DNA from: an uncultured Lentisphaerota bacterium
GTDB lineage: Bacteria; Verrucomicrobiota; Lentisphaeria; Oligosphaerales; CAITYL01
Direction: 5' to 3'
DNA length: 61,708 bases
Assembly (NCBI GenBank): GCA_903896595.1
Contig: CAITYL010000060.1
Coordinates: forward strand, 1-61,708
Each line of letters starts with the position of its first letter. Position 1 is the stretch's first letter. The notes under the pieces were generated by a model. It made no database searches and had not been told where the DNA came from. It worked only from the letters and a program-made list of their open reading frames with translations. Below, in pieces: positions 53,670-61,708 of the stretch. Both the position numbers and the translations under genes were made by a program.

Positions 53670-54656
53670 TCACCCTTGTGAGGACGCGCCGACCTGGCGC
53701 CGGGCCAGGTACAGCAAGTTTTCCAAGTACAGCCGTTGCCGGTTCAGCATGTCGCCGACCAGGCCCAGGGCAAAAAAGAAAAAGGCCAGCAACAAAAAGG
53801 CGCCGCCCGTAAACCCGGCCCACTTGTGCGGCGAGAACCGGCCAGTCTGCCAATAGTGCGCGGCCAGAAACAGCAACAGCACCGCCGCCACCACCCCGGT
53901 GACGACACTCAAGGTGCCGAACAGGCGCATCGGCTTGTAGTCGCGCAGGCTGCGAAAGATGATCCAGGAGGTTTTAAAGGCATAATGGAACAAGTTGGAG
54001 GCGACACGACTCTTGCCATGGGCACGTACCCCGCGCACCCGGATCGGCACCTCAACGATGCGCAACCCCTTGTGGGCCAGATTGAGAAAAACTTCCTGGG
54101 TGTAGGTGAAGTCGCCGATCACGTTGAGGCTGATGGCGGCGTGCCGGTTGTAGCAGCGCATGCCGCAGGACACGTCATAAAACCGCTCGCCGGCCAAGGT
54201 CGAGATCAGCCAGCTCATGGCGTGATTGCCCCAGCGCTTGACCGCCGGCATCTCGGGCACGAGTTTGGGATCGGCAAAGCGGGAGGCGGTGGTGAAATCG
54301 GCATCGCCGGCCAGCACCGGCGCGATAAGTTGCGGAATGGTGGCGGGATCAAACTGGCCATCGGCGTCAATGGTCACCAGCAGGTCGGCGCCCAGTTCAA
54401 TAGACTTGGCCAGCCCGGTCTGGAACGCCGCCCCGACCCCATGGCGACGCCCATGGCTGATCACCAGGGCACCGGCGGCCCGCGCCTCGGCAACCGTGGC
54501 GTCCGTGCTGCCGTCGTCCACCACCAACACGGTCAGCCGGCCGATGCCGGGCAGATCACGCGGGATGCGGCGAATGGTGTCCCCCACCGTGGCCGCCTCG
54601 TTCAAGGCGGGCAGAGAGACCACCAAATGCATGGATGCGGACGATGGTTCGGTCAT
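53670..54656 (-). CDS. Glycosyltransferase family 2 (polyprenol-phosphate glycosyltransferase-like) with two C-terminal TM helices
   Basis: LPALNEA, VVDDGSTD, TIDADGQFDP, ASRF, DVSCGMR, VEVPI. Confidence 0.92.
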   Translation of the reverse strand: MTEPSSASMHLVVSLPALNEAATVGDTIRRIPRDLPGIGRLTVLVVDDGSTDATVAEARAAGALVISHGRRHGVGAAFQTGLAKSIELGADLLVTIDADGQFDPATIPQLIAPVLAGDADFTTASRFADPKLVPEMPAVKRWGNHAMSWLISTLAGERFYDVSCGMRCYNRHAAISLNVIGDFTYTQEVFLNLAHKGLRIVEVPIRVRGVRAHGKSRVASNLFHYAFKTSWIIFRSLRDYKPMRLFGTLSVVTGVVAAVLLLFLAAHYWQTGRFSPHKWAGFTGGAFLLLAFFFFALGLVGDMLNRQRLYLENLLYLARRQVGASSQG

Positions 54657-54753
54657 AAGACAACGGTTCCCCAAATATGGCGCCTCACACTATAATGCCG
54701 GATCGGCCCGACGGCGTGCCCAGTCCGCACCACAACGTTGCCGATGGCTTACC

Positions 54754-54858
54754 CACGGACCAGCACGGACGCCGGACCGCCCCCCGTAGTGGCGCCACTA
54801 CCGCGTCCGTGTAGTCCGTGTAGTCCGTGTAAGTCCGTGTAGTCCGTGTAAGTCCGTG
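54754..54858. repeat. GTCCGTGTA(A) tandem repeat with an inverted partner
   Basis: Six units at 54805-54858; inverted CACGGAC units from 54754; central palindrome GTAGTGGCGCCACTAC. Confidence 0.88.
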
Positions 54859-54895
54859 CCAGCGCCACGTGCATTATTCCAAACCAATTTTGTCG

Positions 54896-55915
54896 TTAAC
54901 AAGCCCCACCCAAGAGCCGGACGACATTGCCGTGAAAGACGGCCTCGACCGCCGCGGTGGACAGCTTGGCGCCGGCAGCGGCGTCACGAATGGCGCGCAA
55001 TTCCTCGTACAGGAACGAGGTGAAGCGGACGCGGTGAGTGGCGTCGCAAATGGCCAGTTTCCACGGCACCGGCGTGACGTAACTGTACTGGTGGTTGATC
55101 TCCACCGACTTGCCGGGGGCCAGCGCCAGCGGAATGTCGGTGCCGTACAGCACTTTCTCCGCCGGCACGGTGCGGAACAGGTACTCAATGACCTCGCGAT
55201 GATTGAGCATCGCCAAATCATACCACAGGTTCGGCAGTTCCTTCAATTCGTCCAGATTGCCGACCACGGCGCGCAGGTAATAGGCCCGGCCAATGTGGGC
55301 CAGCACAATCTTGGCCCGGGGATAACGGCGGCAAAGCCGGATGACTTGGGCGCGGTTCAGCGGATCGGCCAGCCGGCCGGGCCGCGGCAGGTGCAGGGTC
55401 ACCAGCAACCCCAGGTCGTTGACGATCTCCATCAGCCACGCCGGCAGCATGTCGTCAACCTCCACCTCGGCCAGCGGTTTCGTGCGGACATAGTCGGGAT
55501 AGGGCTTGATCCCGGCAAAGCGACCGGAGGCCAAATCGCGCCGGACGGCCTCACGGTCGGCCTCGTCCGGATCGGCCAGGCGAAGAGCGAAAAAACGGCG
55601 GCGGTCGCAGTGGTCGCCCAGGTACTGATTGTTGCGCTGAAAATCATAGCGCGGATCAGGGAGGCCGAAACATAACGCCCCGGTCTCGCGGCCGGGATAA
55701 ACCGCCGGCAGGTCGGCCGCCAGGTCATCCAAGGTATAACTGGCAAGAGGATGCCCGGCACAGTCAAAACTCTCGCCAGCCGGCACTACCCCCGGATCGA
55801 AGACGTGCACATGCGCGTCGAACACACGCCCCGGCACAAACCCGTCCAGTTCCTCGGCAAAAATCCGCCGGTTGCGCTCCTGCAACACCGTCTCCCGCCA
55901 CTCTTCATGCTTCAT
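54896..55915 (-). CDS. Amidohydrolase family protein (Amidohydro_2-like)
   Basis: FDAHVH, GIKPYP, TLHLP, VLAHIGR, LYGTDIP. Confidence 0.9.
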   Translation of the reverse strand: MKHEEWRETVLQERNRRIFAEELDGFVPGRVFDAHVHVFDPGVVPAGESFDCAGHPLASYTLDDLAADLPAVYPGRETGALCFGLPDPRYDFQRNNQYLGDHCDRRRFFALRLADPDEADREAVRRDLASGRFAGIKPYPDYVRTKPLAEVEVDDMLPAWLMEIVNDLGLLVTLHLPRPGRLADPLNRAQVIRLCRRYPRAKIVLAHIGRAYYLRAVVGNLDELKELPNLWYDLAMLNHREVIEYLFRTVPAEKVLYGTDIPLALAPGKSVEINHQYSYVTPVPWKLAICDATHRVRFTSFLYEELRAIRDAAAGAKLSTAAVEAVFHGNVVRLLGGAC

Positions 55916-55959
55916 GTTTCGAACCCTCTGCTACTGAATATACCGGAAGATGTCACATA

Positions 55960-56179
55960 ATGTGGGGGCGCCGCCCCCAGGCCCCTGCCAAAGGGACCTG
56001 TCCCTTTGGAATCCCCGAGACTTTCCATTTTACGAGAGCCGGTACTGGGTGCCGCTGATGGTCGCGACGTTTGGTTTTGTCGCTAACGGCGGCGCACAGC
56101 ACCGGCTCTCGTAAAATCGCTTGTCGGGATTCTCAAGGGACGGAGTTCCTTGAGCGGGGCCTGGGGCAGAGCCCCACAT
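55960..56179 (+). mobile_element. Family A 220-bp structured repeat, copy 1
   Basis: Termini ATGTGGGG / CCCCACAT, four short hairpins and a long central stem. Four copies within 5.7 kb; mobility is inferred. Confidence 0.8.
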
Positions 56180-56182
56180 CCT

Positions 56183-57601
56183 TTATTTTAACAAAGTTTT
56201 CCGGGCGCGGGCCAAAATCTTCTCCAAGTCGTGCACCACTGGCGCGGGATGGGCGGCGGGTTGGTAGGCGGCCAGGGTTTGCAGGTACTTGGCGTGGCAG
56301 GCGTCGAGGATTTCCGGTTCCGTGCGGGTGTCGCCCAGGCGGCGGAACAGTTGCGGATCCCACATCTCGTCGCGGTAATGCTCCAGTGTGTGCTCCTGGG
56401 TCATGAAATTGCCGCCGGCATTGAGCACACCATCGCGGATGCGGGCCACCGTGTCGCCAGCGGGGGACACCACGGGCGCCGTGAAGGTGGCGATCAGTCC
56501 TTCAGTCATTTCGCAGTCGAGCAGGAACTGTTCCGGACTGATCATGCTGCCGTTGTCCAAGTTCCCGGAGCCGTTTAAGCGCAAGTCGTAACGGTCCACC
56601 AACGCCGAAAAACCGACGGCCTTCAGAAACCGCTCATACGTCGCCTGCAAGCCGGGGCGTTTGGCGGTGATATAGGAACGGCCGCCAACGGCGGTGCCGC
56701 CGCCAAAGGCATGCTTCATCAGTTGGTACACGCCGGCATCGAAGCGCACGGTCTGGGGCGTCGAGGACGACGGATTGCCGGTACGCATGTCCAACTGGAC
56801 ACAGGCGATGTAGCCCAGCAGCGGCGCCAATGGATCAATGATCCGGGACAGGATCAGGCCGCCGACGATTTCCGCCGTGGCCAGCACGACCGCGCCATGG
56901 ATGTCCACCGGGCCGCTGCCGCCAAGACACGGCATGGAGGTGATCATGCTGCGGCTGTGGTACCGGCTGCGCTGCAACATGGTTTCCGCCGTCCGTTCTT
57001 CCAGGCGCAACGGCGGATTGATGCAGTTGCAGTAGCCGACAAAATGTCCGGGCGCCTGCCCCAGCACTTCCCCCATTTCCGCCAGGAACGGCACGGTTTC
57101 CGGCACCGTAACGTCAATATTGCCGAGCGTTTTGCTGGTCACGCCGGCCATCAGCACCACACTCTCCAGCTGCTCCAGCGTCGGCTCGACGTCCTGGCGC
57201 GACAGCGGCAGGGTGACCATGGTGATTCGCGGCTCGGCCTGGGCGAATCGGACCAGTTCCAGCATCCGCTCACGGCTGCCAATCTCGGGCCGGCCATTGG
57301 CATAGTCGTAAAACTTGGGCGTGAGATTACCAAAGGATGTCGTGAACTCATACGGTGGATGCACCCATGCCGGCACCCCGGCGGCCGGCGGATACTGCCG
57401 CTCCAGTTCCGTCCGCAATTCCGCCACCTGTTTCCGGTCAAACAACACCCGCCCCTCAGCCGATTCCCGACACCCGGCCGTGAGCGCCAATGCCTTGACC
57501 TTGGGATGCTCCACCAGATACCCCACTGTGCCCAGCACCTGCAAAACCTCATCCGCCATCTGCTCAAACTGCACATCACTAAACAACGCATTGCTGTTCA
57601 T
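56183..57601 (-). CDS. Trimethylamine-methyltransferase (MttB) superfamily protein, non-pyrrolysine
   Basis: VLGTVG, INPPLR, GGSGPVDIHG....AEIVGG, DMRTG, AKRPGLQATYE, GNLDNG...SPEQFLLDCE, GGNFMTQEHTLEH; no in-frame TAG. Confidence 0.85.
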   Translation of the reverse strand: MNSNALFSDVQFEQMADEVLQVLGTVGYLVEHPKVKALALTAGCRESAEGRVLFDRKQVAELRTELERQYPPAAGVPAWVHPPYEFTTSFGNLTPKFYDYANGRPEIGSRERMLELVRFAQAEPRITMVTLPLSRQDVEPTLEQLESVVLMAGVTSKTLGNIDVTVPETVPFLAEMGEVLGQAPGHFVGYCNCINPPLRLEERTAETMLQRSRYHSRSMITSMPCLGGSGPVDIHGAVVLATAEIVGGLILSRIIDPLAPLLGYIACVQLDMRTGNPSSSTPQTVRFDAGVYQLMKHAFGGGTAVGGRSYITAKRPGLQATYERFLKAVGFSALVDRYDLRLNGSGNLDNGSMISPEQFLLDCEMTEGLIATFTAPVVSPAGDTVARIRDGVLNAGGNFMTQEHTLEHYRDEMWDPQLFRRLGDTRTEPEILDACHAKYLQTLAAYQPAAHPAPVVHDLEKILARARKTLLK

Positions 57602-57630
57602 AGACTTATCCTTTTTACGTTTGATTTATG

Positions 57631-57851
57631 ATGTGGGGCTCTGCCCCAGGCCCCGCTCAAGGAACGCCGTCCCTTGAGAATCCCGACATCCGATTTTGCG
57701 AGAGCCGGTGCTGTGCACCGCCGGCAGCGACAATGCCAAATGTTTCAAGCACTCTGCGGCGCACAGTACCGGCTCTCGCAAAATGGAAGGTCTCGGGGAT
57801 TCCAAAGGGACTGGTCCCTTTGGCAGGGGCTTGGGGGCGGCGCCCCCACAT
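57631..57851 (-). mobile_element. Family A element, copy 2 (inverted)
   Basis: Reverse-complement copy with a diverged central loop. Confidence 0.8.
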
Positions 57852-57865
57852 CACTAAAATTGCGG

Positions 57866-58453
57866 TTATTTGGGAATGGGTTTTTCATGGATGGGGGCGG
57901 TGAGGATGGCGTCCAAGTTTGGGCACAGGGGATGGAACTTGTTGGTATCGATGACCTGGCGCCAACGCTGGCGCTGGTCCTCCTCGACCGGCCACGGTTT
58001 GAAACCGAGTTCGAGATAGGTTTTGATGGCGGGCACGCGGGGGTCATCGGTCTCCAGCACGGCACGGGTGCGGCCTTCGGCGGCGAACCGGTGCAGGACC
58101 GCCAGCGACACCCAGTACCCGAGCTTCCGTCCCTTGTGCTCGGGATTGGTGGCGACGTAGTGCACATACCCGGTGTCCACGCCCCACCACGGCCGGTACC
58201 AGGCCGAGGCAGTGGCCACCGGCACACCATCACACGTGATGAAAAAAATGCGCTCCGGCACACACGCGGCATCGGTCGCCAAGATATTGGCGAACAATCG
58301 CGGCGGCTGGCTGGCGCCAAACGCCTGCACCAGCAGCCGGTCCCACGCCGCCTCATCCCCAACCCCCGGCTGGAAATGCCGCAACGCATACCCCGCCGGC
58401 ACTACCACCGGCGCCAACCCCGCCAATCCCTCTCGCACCATGACTAATTGCAT
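57866..58453 (-). CDS. GNAT family N-acetyltransferase
   Basis: YVHYVATNPEHKGRKLG and AIKTYLELGF; GAGGTG RBS. Confidence 0.9.
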   Translation of the reverse strand: MQLVMVREGLAGLAPVVVPAGYALRHFQPGVGDEAAWDRLLVQAFGASQPPRLFANILATDAACVPERIFFITCDGVPVATASAWYRPWWGVDTGYVHYVATNPEHKGRKLGYWVSLAVLHRFAAEGRTRAVLETDDPRVPAIKTYLELGFKPWPVEEDQRQRWRQVIDTNKFHPLCPNLDAILTAPIHEKPIPK

Positions 58454-58482
58454 ATTTCCACCTCATTTTTTCTTTGACAGCC

Positions 58483-58701
58483 ATGTGGGGGCGCCGCCCC
58501 CAGGCCCCTGCCAAAGGGACCAGTCCCTTTGGAATCCCCGAGACATTCCATTTTGCGAAGGCCGGTACTGGGCGCCGCTGAGGGTCGCGACGTGTGGTTT
58601 TGTCTCTAATGGCGGCGCCCAGCACCGGCCTTCGCAAAATCGGTGTCGGGATTCTCAAGGGACGGAGTTCCTTGAGCGGGGCTTGGGGCAGAGCCCCACA
58701 T
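58483..58701 (+). mobile_element. Family A element, copy 3
   Basis: Full copy; central stem variant TTTTGCGAAGGCCGG / CCGGCCTTCGCAAAA. Confidence 0.8.
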
Positions 58702-58714
58702 CTTGAATTCTTTT

Positions 58715-60112
58715 TTAAGAAATGATTTCACAGCTCCAGTTTTGGAAACGGGCGAAGGCTTGGAGGGGTTCCAGACGGTTGGGGCCATAGACCAGGGCGC
58801 TGTGGTGGGTGCCGCCGGCGACGGAATAGCGTTCCAGGAACGGTGCCACCGGCAAGCTCGGCCGGATCCAGCCACGGACCCAGCCGGCAAACGCGGCGCC
58901 GCGCGGTTCCGGCAGCATCTCCACGGGGGCGAGCACCAGCGAGAAGCGGTCGTCCGGCCCGGGCACCAGATTGACCAGGGTCGCCGCGCCGGGACGGAAC
59001 GCACCGGCGATCATGGCCGGGTTTTGGGCCGGCGTGAACGGGAACGGCTTCTCCACCAGTTCGGGTTTGCCAGCCAGCAACTCGGGATTGGCCTCGCCCA
59101 TGTGCGAAAGGAAAAGCACGTTGTGCTTCCAGTCGGGGCAGAAAATTTCCGTGAATGAGGTGTCGCCGAACGCCGCCGCCAAGGCGCCGACCAGGGCGGC
59201 GGTGAGCACATCACCCTCGCCCGCATAACCGACGCCGCGGGCCATGGCCTTGGACGCCTCCAGAAACGGCACCGTGTCGACCGGGCCAGTGCCCTGGTCA
59301 AACGCCTCAAAATTGAAGCTGAACGCGTTGTACCCGCCGTCGGCCAGAAACCGGCGCAACCCCAGTGCCAACCGGACCGAGCGCGCATGCACGGCCGCCG
59401 GTGCGGTCACCGCGTACCGTTTCCGATCCTCAGCCACTTCCGCAGCCACCGCCTTGGCCGTCACGGCACGAACGGCGGTGGCCAGCACGGATGGCGCCGC
59501 CTGCTCCACGGCAATGCCCAGGCCATGGCGCAACATTTCCGGGGCGACCTGAAAGTCACCCATACCGGCAAACACCTTGCCCAGGCGCAACACCCGGCTG
59601 GAGTGGAACCGGCGCGCGGCGGCGGCGGCGCGGGCGATCCCGGCCACCCGCGGCAACACCTCCGGCGCCTGCCAGTGCCCGGCGACAATCTCCGGCCGCC
59701 GCCCCAGCCGCCGCAGCACGGATGCCAGATCCTGAACCCCGTGAATCCCATGGTTGTACATCAAACGCCCCGGCGCCGTTTTCGGGGTGAACTCGACGTC
59801 CATGGTGGTGTCGAGCATCAGCAGCGGCAGGCGGGTCTCGGCTAAAATCTCCGCCGCTTCCAGCGACGGTGAGTAGGCCAGGTGCAGCGTGACCACCAGG
59901 TCGACGTCCGCCTTTTCAAAACCCTTCACGGCGGCGGCGATCTCCCGGCGCACCCGGCAGACCGGCGCGGTCATCAACTCGAGCCCCTGCCCGGCCAGCG
60001 CCTTCTGCAGGCCGGCCAGGAACGGTGCGAACACCGCGCGTTCTTCGGGCATTTTGTCGTCGTAGAGTGCGAGGTACAGGGGCAATAGACCGATTTTGGG
60101 CGTTACGTGCAT
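58715..60112 (-). CDS. L-arabinose/L-fucose isomerase family protein
   Basis: HLAYSPS, MYNHGIHG, MGDF, GYAGEGD, FTEIF, LSHMGE and GGTHHSAL match the AraA-like metal-ligand layout. Start placed at MHVTP. Confidence 0.85.
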   Translation of the reverse strand: MHVTPKIGLLPLYLALYDDKMPEERAVFAPFLAGLQKALAGQGLELMTAPVCRVRREIAAAVKGFEKADVDLVVTLHLAYSPSLEAAEILAETRLPLLMLDTTMDVEFTPKTAPGRLMYNHGIHGVQDLASVLRRLGRRPEIVAGHWQAPEVLPRVAGIARAAAAARRFHSSRVLRLGKVFAGMGDFQVAPEMLRHGLGIAVEQAAPSVLATAVRAVTAKAVAAEVAEDRKRYAVTAPAAVHARSVRLALGLRRFLADGGYNAFSFNFEAFDQGTGPVDTVPFLEASKAMARGVGYAGEGDVLTAALVGALAAAFGDTSFTEIFCPDWKHNVLFLSHMGEANPELLAGKPELVEKPFPFTPAQNPAMIAGAFRPGAATLVNLVPGPDDRFSLVLAPVEMLPEPRGAAFAGWVRGWIRPSLPVAPFLERYSVAGGTHHSALVYGPNRLEPLQAFARFQNWSCEIIS

Positions 60113-61569
60113 GAGATTTTCACTTTCCATTCCGCAAACAACCGAGTGTATTGATCGTGGGCAATCGGATCGGGCTGGACGATTTCGGGTTCGGCGGCCA
60201 CGGCGGTCGCGCCAGCCTGAACATCGGCGAACACGCCCGTCCCGATGCCGGCCAAAATGGCGGCGCCAATGGCGCCCGCGTTCTGGCGCACACCAAGATA
60301 AAACGGCAGGCCGGTGACATCCGCCAACACCCGCGACCACACCGCCGACCGCGACGGCCCGCCCACCATGGTCAAACGGCACGGCCGCCAGCCCGCCGCC
60401 GCCAATTCCTCGACCTTGGCCCGCATGTGGAACGCCGCGGCTTCCATGACGGCGCGGCTGAGCAGCTCCGGCGCGACCCCGGCCGGCACCTGTTCCGCGG
60501 CATCAGCCCGCATGAGATCCACGCACAGCCCACCGGCCCCGCACGGTGCGGACTCCGCCAACGCATCAAAACAACGAAAGCGCGCCTGGGGATCGGCGCC
60601 GGCCGGTAGCGAACCAACCGCACGTCCGACCAAGGCATCTATGGTCTGGCCGATCCGGGTCAGAGCAAACATCGCCCCCCACGGCCCGGCCGGCTGCAAG
60701 AACGGATCGACCAGCATCCCCATGGCCAACGCCGCCGCACGGTCGGACACCGGATAGAAACCGACCCAGGAGGTGCCGCAGGAAAACATCAGGTCCCCCG
60801 GCGCCAGGGTGCCGGTGGCGCAGGCGGCGGCGGGATGGTCAAAACAACCGAGCACGACTTGGGTGTCGCGCGGCAGTCCCGTGGCCTCGGCCGCGACAGC
60901 GGTCAAGCCCCCCAGCACGGTGCCGGAAGGTCGCAGTTCCGGCAGGGATGCCGCCGGAATTTCCAAGGCCGTCAGGTACGGCGCATGCCACTTCCCCGCA
61001 ACCTGATCCAGCAGGTACGACGGCGTGGCGGTGGACGGGTCCACCCCCCAGCGCCCGGTGAGCCGGTGCAACAGGTACACGGTGTCCAGGGTATGATGCG
61101 CGGCGCCACGGTACAGTTCCGGCCGGTGTTCCTTGAGCCAGGCCAGATGCGCCAGCGGAAAACTCTCAAAATACGGCCACCCGGTCACGCCATGAACGCC
61201 AGGCAGGTCCACACCGGCCAGCGCGGCCAGTTTCAGACCGCGGGCACGATCGTCGGTCCAACTGATGGCCGGAGCCAGCGGCTGTCCGGCGGCATCGGTC
61301 AGCACGGTGTTGCCGCTGGCGGCGGCAAAGGCCACCCCAGCCACCCGGTGCCCCGCCGGACACGCCGCCCCCAACTGGCGCATAAGCCCCAATACGGTGC
61401 CGGCAAAAGCCGCGGCATCAAACTCGCACCACCCCGCCTGCGGACTCCGCAACCCAGTCGGTGCCGACACCCCCGCCAATACCTGCCCCGCCCCGGACAA
61501 CAACACCCCCTTGACCGCACTGGTCCCCAAATCAAACCCCATCACCACCGGTTGATAATTTTTCTTCAT
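60103..61569 (-). CDS. FGGY-family carbohydrate kinase (xylulokinase-like)
   Basis: GFDLGTSAVK, AISWTDDR, GCFDH, SCGTS, VGGPSRS..W..VLADVTG, GAAILAG. Start placed at MKKNY. Confidence 0.92.
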   Translation of the reverse strand: MKKNYQPVVMGFDLGTSAVKGVLLSGAGQVLAGVSAPTGLRSPQAGWCEFDAAAFAGTVLGLMRQLGAACPAGHRVAGVAFAAASGNTVLTDAAGQPLAPAISWTDDRARGLKLAALAGVDLPGVHGVTGWPYFESFPLAHLAWLKEHRPELYRGAAHHTLDTVYLLHRLTGRWGVDPSTATPSYLLDQVAGKWHAPYLTALEIPAASLPELRPSGTVLGGLTAVAAEATGLPRDTQVVLGCFDHPAAACATGTLAPGDLMFSCGTSWVGFYPVSDRAAALAMGMLVDPFLQPAGPWGAMFALTRIGQTIDALVGRAVGSLPAGADPQARFRCFDALAESAPCGAGGLCVDLMRADAAEQVPAGVAPELLSRAVMEAAAFHMRAKVEELAAAGWRPCRLTMVGGPSRSAVWSRVLADVTGLPFYLGVRQNAGAIGAAILAGIGTGVFADVQAGATAVAAEPEIVQPDPIAHDQYTRLFAEWKVKISCT

Positions 61570-61592
61570 GGTGTGATTGTTTCGTTCATTGA

Positions 61593-61708
61593 ATGTGGGG
61601 GCGCCGCCCCCAAGCCCCTGCCAAAGGGACCTGTCCCTTTGGAATCCCCGAAACATTCCATTTTGCGAGAGCCGGTACTGTGCGCCGCGGATGGTCGCGA
61701 CGTTTGGT
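61593..61708 (+). mobile_element. Family A element, copy 4 (cut by window end)
   Basis: First 116 bp of the element, immediately upstream of the kinase gene. Confidence 0.8.

Follow-up and report, generated by a model that had tools for sequence, protein, structure and literature searches.

Bacterial interspersed mosaic elements (BIMEs) and repetitive extragenic palindromic (REP) sequences of enterobacteria, as well as the REPINs of Pseudomonas, are GC-rich extragenic hairpin units that occur in high copy and in inverted pairs around a spacer, and repeats of the REP type are seen as bound to a lineage, in partnership with a resident REP-associated tyrosine transposase (RAYT). Bacterial miniature inverted-repeat transposable elements (MITEs), such as Correia/NEMIS of Neisseria, ERIC/IRU and RUP, are dispersed non-coding intergenic repeats of 100-300 bp with terminal inverted repeats, which form a long hairpin and are co-transcribed. 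The attC sites of integrons (e.g. the VCRs of Vibrio) combine conserved ends with a variable palindromic centre, the structure of which is kept, and lie between co-oriented genes. The element described here, Family A, resembles each of these systems in part. It was found in a DNA stretch of 61,708 nucleotides (hereafter the window, i.e. the whole stretch that was analysed; contig CAITYL010000060.1 of assembly GCA_903896595.1, designated C60) from an uncultured Lentisphaerota bacterium, the 5.8-Mb draft genome of which (G000, 404 contigs) was compared with that of a congener (G001). An initial annotation, made from the sequence of the window alone, had described Family A as a structured element at the free junctions of one operon and had proposed that it is a folded single-stranded DNA substrate of an HUH-type transposase, a structured RNA or a gene-cassette boundary.

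Family A is not operon-specific, but is a dispersed non-coding mosaic repeat. It is fairly likely that it represents an interspersed palindromic repeat of Lentisphaeria, most similar in type to BIME/REPIN-like elements and bacterial MITEs, and as a DNA repeat it is probably selfish. The end modules would be its functional part, their sequence being kept through recognition by a putative protein, either for copying or for maintenance, while the copies may settle and persist in short gene junctions, mostly right after stop codons, where they are tolerated. In genome annotation, Family A hairpins should not be taken as operon-specific regulators, riboswitch-like RNAs or cassette boundaries.

Structure of the element

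Four copies of Family A are present in the window. Copy 1 (55960..56179, plus strand) consists of an L end module (55960-56021), a central quasi-palindrome (56022-56122) and an R end module (56123-56179); it occupies the junction between the start of an amidohydrolase gene and the stop of an MttB-like gene and has a folding energy of -148 kcal/mol (z -11). Copy 2 (57631..57851, minus strand) is inverted, lies between the start of the MttB-like gene and the stop of a GNAT acetyltransferase gene and is 90% identical to copy 1, and copy 3 (58483..58701, plus strand), between the GNAT start and the stop of an AraA-like isomerase gene, is 92% identical to it. Copy 4 (61593..61708, plus strand), upstream of the start of an FGGY kinase gene, retains the L module and half of the centre, the rest being lost at the contig end, and its orthologue in G001 is complete (L030:2660-2880). 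Altogether, copies 2-4 share 90-94% identity with copy 1. As the initial annotation had stated, every non-overlapping junction from the kinase to the amidohydrolase contains a copy (4/4 free junctions); the kinase/isomerase junction lacks one because the two genes overlap (60103-60130) and leave no room for it.

A copy of Family A is polar and is composed of an end module of about 60 nt, a quasi-palindromic core of about 100 nt and an inverted end module. The L module (62 nt) carries hairpin A (GGGGGC GCC GCCCCC), a linker, the 22-nt hairpin B (CCAAAGGGAC NN GTCCCTTTGG) and the motif AATCCC, and the R module (58 nt) repeats L imperfectly in inverted orientation, with hairpins B' and A'. The two modules are 73% complementary, and the termini ATGTGGGG/CCCCACAT form terminal inverted repeats, as in MITEs. 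The centre is mostly 93-107 nt long, although centres of 5, 37, 156-159 and 188-224 nt were also found, and in the 75-nt forms L and R are fused inside hairpin B. The centres are assembled from a few recurring hairpin modules, and this mosaic make-up is a hallmark of the BIME type.

The dinucleotide AT stands at both ends in 30/40 copies and belongs to the conserved ATG...CAT termini, while direct repeats of 3-6 nt were found in just 0-8 of the 40 copies, which agrees with the earlier remark that no target duplication is evident beyond a possible AT. The flanks are weakly inverted-complementary (3.8/10 versus 2.97, p about 0.001), suggesting that in some copies the ends reach a few bases further, or that palindromic targets are preferred.

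Distribution in the genome

A search of G000 with blastn and with nhmmer profiles of both ends revealed 114 end modules, corresponding to 73 loci, 41 of them complete, and the order on one strand was always L to R; 31 further loci were found in the sampled stretches of G001. The loci are spread over many contigs and are located between called genes or at contig ends. The 39 complete copies between called genes leave a median gap of 22.5 nt, and they lie closer to gene 3' ends (median 13 nt, n=48) than to 5' ends (median 67.5 nt, n=30). The 53 occupied junctions comprise 32 tandem, 14 convergent and 7 divergent ones, so that convergent junctions are enriched (14/53 versus a background of 13%, p 0.007). 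Relative to co-directional genes, 21 copies point one way and 12 the other genome-wide (p 0.16).

The copies are not scattered at random. Eight pairs of adjacent junctions are both occupied, compared with 0.66 such pairs on average, and never more than 5, in 5000 permutations, which supports the initial annotation in this respect; the longest run of occupied junctions is that of the window. Such local clustering would account for an operon with a copy in each free junction. The genes beside clustered copies are ordinary and include regulators, enzymes acting on sugars and amino groups, a sigma factor and a PIN-MazE pair. The PIN/MazE toxin-antitoxin pair (G000:C26:44362-45703, L231) is located exactly between two outward-pointing copies of Family A. 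Another long palindrome, made of CACAGAG-type words, was observed directly 3' of a gene stop at G000:C327:23290-23400.

Among the 41 relatives searched, 34 gave no match to the element. Five genomes of other families of the order contain the end module only, placed around their own, different central hairpins.

Comparison with the congener

Twenty-one G001 elements had both flanks mapped to G000, and 10 of them share their site with a G000 element; for the remaining 11 the flanks map to two places in G000, or the site is altered by another insertion. Flanks mapping to two places may reflect either rearrangement at the repeats or assembly chimeras. The flanks of the shared sites are 85-96% identical. 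Nine orthologous pairs show 95% identity in L as well as in R, and 67% in the centre, and at several orthologous sites the two species have centres of different subfamilies, each self-complementary, in one case a centre of 188 nt versus one of 101 nt. Whole centres may therefore be exchanged between copies via their identical ends.

At one site G000 differs from G001 by a 1.1-kb insertion (G000:C218:4738-5860), which contains a small gene on the minus strand, placed between long tandem arrays of a 9-nt unit (TGGTGGACC / GGGTCCACG). Where G000 has this insertion, G001 carries a 75-nt mini form of Family A.

Several points weigh against a mobile, selfish repeat. Neither an autonomous copy nor a cognate enzyme was found in G000, none of the 21 G001 elements with mapped flanks corresponds to a clean empty site, and a target duplication is absent, so that mobility is inferred. 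Many copies are old and stand at sites shared by the two species, which also fits a function retained by the host; the ends exceed the neighbouring genes in identity only a little (95% versus about 91%), and selection on the ends is therefore suggestive rather than proven. Both genomes are fragmented metagenome-assembled genomes (MAGs), and apparent rearrangements at the elements could be assembly chimeras. Contig ends are touched, or gene calls overlapped, by 19/73 loci in G000, indicating that the elements break MAG assemblies, and the genes were called with a simple ad hoc caller.

Covariation, folding and maintenance of the palindrome

The central-stem variants listed in the initial annotation (TACGAGAG/CTCTCGTA, TGCGAGAG/CTCTCGCA and TGCGAAGG/CCTTCGCA) read as given, and so do those of the inner stem, CTGGGCG/CGCCCAG and CTGTGCG/TGCACAG, the latter with one G.T pair. 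The covariation was assessed in an alignment of 46 full-length copies (29 from G000 and 17 from G001), for which the structures were written by hand and then checked. In the main helix 15/18 pairs change on both sides, with 92.9% of cells paired. For the whole structure, 183 cells changed on both sides, compared with 83.6 +/- 7.1 in shuffled alignments (0/500 reach 183) and 37-80 with slid partners. The central stem thus stays paired well past chance, as had been claimed.

Conservation of the four small hairpins and of the linking stems, which the initial annotation had stated, is confirmed, but they are almost invariant (the small hairpins are 97.8-99.6% paired), so that the family gives no covariation evidence on them, for or against. 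The multibranched shape is likewise supported only in part. Pairing is slightly more complete within the local hairpins than between L and R (94.5% of cells), and a G-to-A change in B', present in six copies, keeps the local hairpin and breaks the L:R pair; in RNA folding, however, a single long fold-back (-148.2 kcal/mol) is more stable than the multibranched form (-132.4 kcal/mol) by 16 kcal/mol. The fold is very stable on either strand. A search of Rfam 15 with permissive thresholds, covering the window region and 20 loci from other taxa, returned just sub-threshold matches to microRNA-like hairpins.

Some REP/BIME sequences set the relative expression of cistrons as transcribed hairpins, and Family A might act similarly, as a cis-acting RNA in which the transcribed hairpin of -148 kcal/mol is selected because it guards upstream cistrons from 3' exonucleases or serves as an RNase III site. 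All four copies in the window lie within a co-directional gene run, genome-wide they stand a median of 13 nt past stop codons with about 67 nt left before starts, the fold is very stable, and the sites are kept in two species. No intrinsic terminator (GC hairpin followed by a T run) was found within the elements on the minus strand, the total being 7 such sites versus 7.1 expected; read-through of the transcribed strand is therefore plausible. This RNA role is nevertheless unlikely. Copies face either way with respect to transcription, in the window as well as genome-wide (21/33), 14/53 occupied junctions are convergent and 7 divergent, orthologous sites have different centres, and the end module is shared with unrelated phyla, where it is part of other mosaics. 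Moreover, a one-strand excess of G.U pairs is absent.

The last point follows from the mismatches of the central stem, in which 1157/1259 cells (92%) are Watson-Crick pairs and the rest are 26 G.T, 52 A.C and 24 other mismatches; with 26 G.T compared with 52 A.C there is no wobble excess on one strand. In 8/30 pairs of strongly similar apical loops (about 34 nt) one loop is the reverse complement of the other, one such flipped pair being copy 2 of the window and the G001 orthologue of copy 4, and the element occurs in both orientations within one operon (+,-,+,+). Judged from these sequence patterns, maintenance of the palindrome at the DNA level, by template switching and by exchange between copies, fits the central-stem covariation better than RNA selection. 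The caveat of the initial annotation that arm-to-arm conversion could explain the covariation thus turns out to be the best fit, given the lack of a G.T excess, the flipped loops and the mixed orientation.

The available parts of PMC8604942 and PMC8794818 describe how template switching between the arms of an inverted repeat homogenises the arms and inverts the spacer. In Family A, intrastrand template switching or arm-to-arm correction may keep the central hairpin self-complementary, and together with the exchange of centres via near-identical ends it would account for the mismatch pattern, the mixed orientation, the flipped loops and the swapped centres alike. Apparent compensatory changes and flipped loops would then arise without selection on RNA. 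Family A is a clear natural case of strong 'covariation' in DNA palindromes without evidence of RNA selection, and calls for caution in covariation-based RNA discovery.

The end module in other phyla

Exact matches to hairpin B were obtained in at least 121 stretches. Among the matches listed, most belong to Clostridia/Oscillospiraceae, and others to Lentisphaeria, Thermodesulfobacteriota, Acidobacteriota, Ca. Magnetomicrobium, Fretibacterium and a deltaproteobacterial MAG; the phyla and classes with the end module among these matches are Clostridia, Nitrospirota, Thermodesulfobacteriota, Acidobacteriota and Synergistota. The unit common to the oriented matches listed consists of hairpin A, the linker, hairpin B and AATCCC, the last motif being AATCCC in 83/113 and AAACCC in 19/113. 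Hairpin A is present in 79/113 of the units listed, with 53 different stems, compared with 12/113 in a control window and 6/113 in shuffles. In five genomes of other phyla the core is present in 104, 109, 231, 27 and 16 copies (<=2 mismatches), a reversed-pattern control giving 0-1.

In an Oscillospiraceae MAG (G043, L199-L228) another mosaic repeat, about 230 nt long, has the end module at its 5' end. This repeat contains the palindrome AAGTCTGTACAGACTT and ends in TTTTTTCGTAAAGAAAAAA, and 90 copies of the 28-nt core (<=1 mismatch) were counted. The only viral contig with hairpin B (L237:1500-1800) carries the hairpin twice, in tandem direct repeats of 275 nt. In blastn searches of plasmid and phage collections the L module gave no match.

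These occurrences raise the possibility, put forward tentatively, that the end module is the recognition end of an undescribed hairpin replicator that spreads horizontally and is found in six or more phyla, each carrier genome having tens to hundreds of copies, its enzyme being neither a Y1 transposase nor an integron integrase; Family A would be the inverted-pair form of this replicator in Lentisphaeria. If this is true, the occurrence of an identical 28-nt core in high copy across phyla and without a RAYT would imply an enzyme not yet known, as well as horizontal spread.

The same distribution may be read in terms of the host. Hairpin B could be a DNA site at which a putative dimeric protein binds for nucleoid organisation, topology or recombination, with the elements acting as domain or supercoil barriers between genes, since the 22-nt palindrome and AATCCC are kept across phyla while hairpin A varies freely, and the ends are conserved equally to or above the flanking genes. 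No candidate protein was found, however, the mosaic partners of the module vary between phyla, and its lack in 34/41 of the relatives searched argues against a core cellular role. We regard a host-retained site as improbable, and favour an interspersed repeat whose ends are recognised for its own copying or maintenance.

Candidate mobilising enzymes

The G000 genome encodes three full Y1_Tnp (RAYT-like) genes (G000:C362:868-1320, C309:25226-25705 and C85:6355-6696; loci L020-L022), each flanked by its own REP family. These families have the structures CCCAGGGC-N3-GCCCTGGG (39 copies), CAGGGGCT-N2-AGCCCCTG (76 copies) and CCTGGGGC-N3-GCCCCAGG (16 copies), and their members often form REPIN-like inverted pairs about 100 nt apart. 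Family A might accordingly be a REPIN-like element that is moved by a RAYT acting on the folded terminal hairpins A/A'. Its two inverted terminal hairpins around a spacer, without target duplication, correspond to the REPIN layout, and a Y1 gene is present in 7/7 relatives that carry the end module. The REP family at the C85 gene (CCTGGGGC-N3-GCCCCAGG) has its 5' arm in common with hairpin A', and by this resemblance cross-mobilisation by the C85 RAYT is possible.

Such mobilisation appears rather improbable all the same. Each RAYT has its own REP family (16, 39 and 76 copies), none of the three adjoins a copy of Family A in G000, and the sequences 5' of the hairpins differ; the conserved GTAG/CGTC tetranucleotide tag of the foot of REP hairpins is absent from the aligned ends. 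Y1 genes also occur in 21/34 relatives without the module, and 0/5 of the other-phylum genomes (16-231 copies) has a Y1 gene over the cut-off. The proposal of the initial annotation that Family A is an HUH-type (RAYT) substrate is not supported, given the association of the three Y1 genes with other REP families and the lack of a Y1 gene over the cut-off in the five other-phylum carriers.

An integron integrase gene is also present (G000:C383:10393-11697, L031; TIGR02249, 384.7 bits versus a cut-off of 265). Three copies of a TGGACGTAA-type motif were observed upstream of it, within the 370 nt to the contig end. Conserved ends around a structurally kept, sequence-variable palindrome would agree with an attC-like recombination site of a chromosomal integron, with Family A marking the cassette boundaries. 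The integrase gene (intI) is over the cut-off in 15/41 genomes of the order, more often in relatives with the module (5/7) than in those without it (10/34; Fisher p 0.08). Against this, the orientation is mixed within one co-directional run, the intI contig holds no copy of Family A and has other repeats upstream of intI, and G001, which is 91% complete and has about 30 copies, revealed no intI. The gene order is the same as in G001 and the genes concerned are regulators and ordinary metabolic enzymes, while the termini ATGTGGGG/CCCCACAT appear unlike the R''/R' consensus of attC core sites, and intI is over the cut-off in 0/5 of the other-phylum carriers. The cassette-boundary proposal is largely refuted by mixed orientations, conserved synteny with G001, ordinary operon genes including regulators, and an intI contig without copies, and retains hardly any probability.

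Across the 41 relatives the occurrence of the module follows neither that of intI nor that of Y1. In the five other-phylum carriers neither gene was over the cut-off, these genomes being MAGs to which incompleteness applies, and no Y2 (IS91) transposase was found in them, the control being equally silent. In G000 no transposase-like gene is enclosed by an L...R pair, and the genes between neighbouring copies encode ordinary enzymes and regulators. Neither a Y1 nor an IntI gene is linked to Family A.

Gene context

Between 54.9 and 61.7 kb of the window every gene is on the minus strand. In the direction of transcription the first is an FGGY-family sugar kinase (60103..61569; Pfam FGGY_N 1e-36 and FGGY_C), followed by an L-arabinose-isomerase-like gene (58715..60130; Pfam AraA_N/central/C; NCBIfam PRK02929, 116 bits, below the cut-off), a GNAT acetyltransferase (57866..58453; Pfam Acetyltransf_1, 4.5e-11), an MttB-superfamily (trimethylamine methyltransferase-like) gene (56183..57601; Pfam MTTB, 1.1e-31) and an Amidohydrolase_2 gene (54896..55915; Pfam PF04909, 2.5e-20).

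In G001 the isomerase-kinase pair is followed by three elements and two genes, which match G000 contig C78, reversed, with 89% identity. Synteny thus links the end of the window to contig C78, which adds at least two elements, in the junctions that follow within this co-directional run. In transcription order the run comprises a DeoR regulator, an element, alanine dehydrogenase, an element, a class-III aminotransferase-like gene, an element and the kinase-isomerase pair, and then an element, GNAT, an element, the MttB-like gene, an element and the amidohydrolase. From the DeoR regulator to the isomerase the gene order is the same in G001, with 88-89% identity.

The run from DeoR to the amidohydrolase (window 54896-61569 and G000:C78) resembles an uncharacterised operon of amino-sugar or amine catabolism. 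Its MttB-superfamily protein scores 102 bits, compared with a cut-off of 525 for trimethylamine methyltransferase. The following junction, between the amidohydrolase and a GT2 gene (54633-54895), contains another hairpin repeat (54754-54860), the arms of which consist of phased copies of CACGGAC/GTCCGTG.

Comparison with known systems

No description of the element was found in the literature on Lentisphaerae palindromic repeats, REPIN/RAYT in Clostridia or Oscillospiraceae MITEs, and a literature search with a sequence string returned primers only; in the available portion of PMC6006769 repeats of these taxa are not mentioned.

With integron attC sites Family A shares conserved ends, a palindromic centre that varies in sequence while its structure is kept, and a position between co-oriented genes. 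It differs from them in its mixed orientation, the lack of core sites, the spread over many contigs, the conserved synteny and the absence of linkage to intI. The coupled changes of the arms and the two orientations of the loops resemble the homogenisation and spacer inversion of inverted repeats by template switching, as presented in the available parts of PMC8604942 and PMC8794818; in Family A a comparable process would operate on a multi-copy element and would go together with an exchange of centres between copies.

The likeness to bacterial MITEs lies in a short (100-300 bp), non-coding, multi-copy sequence that is dispersed between genes, has terminal inverted repeats, is able to form a long hairpin and would be transcribed together with its neighbouring genes. 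Unlike MITEs, Family A has only a trivial AT duplication, no parent insertion sequence with the same ends in the genome, and a centre that is hypervariable yet self-complementary.

Family A is similar to BIMEs and REPINs in its GC-rich extragenic hairpin units, its high copy number and its inverted pairs around a spacer, as well as in its mosaic centres drawn from a small set of modules, its sites after gene 3' ends in operons, its persistence at orthologous positions and the absence of target duplication. It departs from the REP-RAYT system in lacking a cognate RAYT and a GTAG-type tag, and in having a unit of two hairpins (about 55 nt) where a REP has one (20-40 nt). Finally, the core of the Family A unit is identical across phyla, whereas REPs are described, in the portions of the literature available, as lineage-specific.

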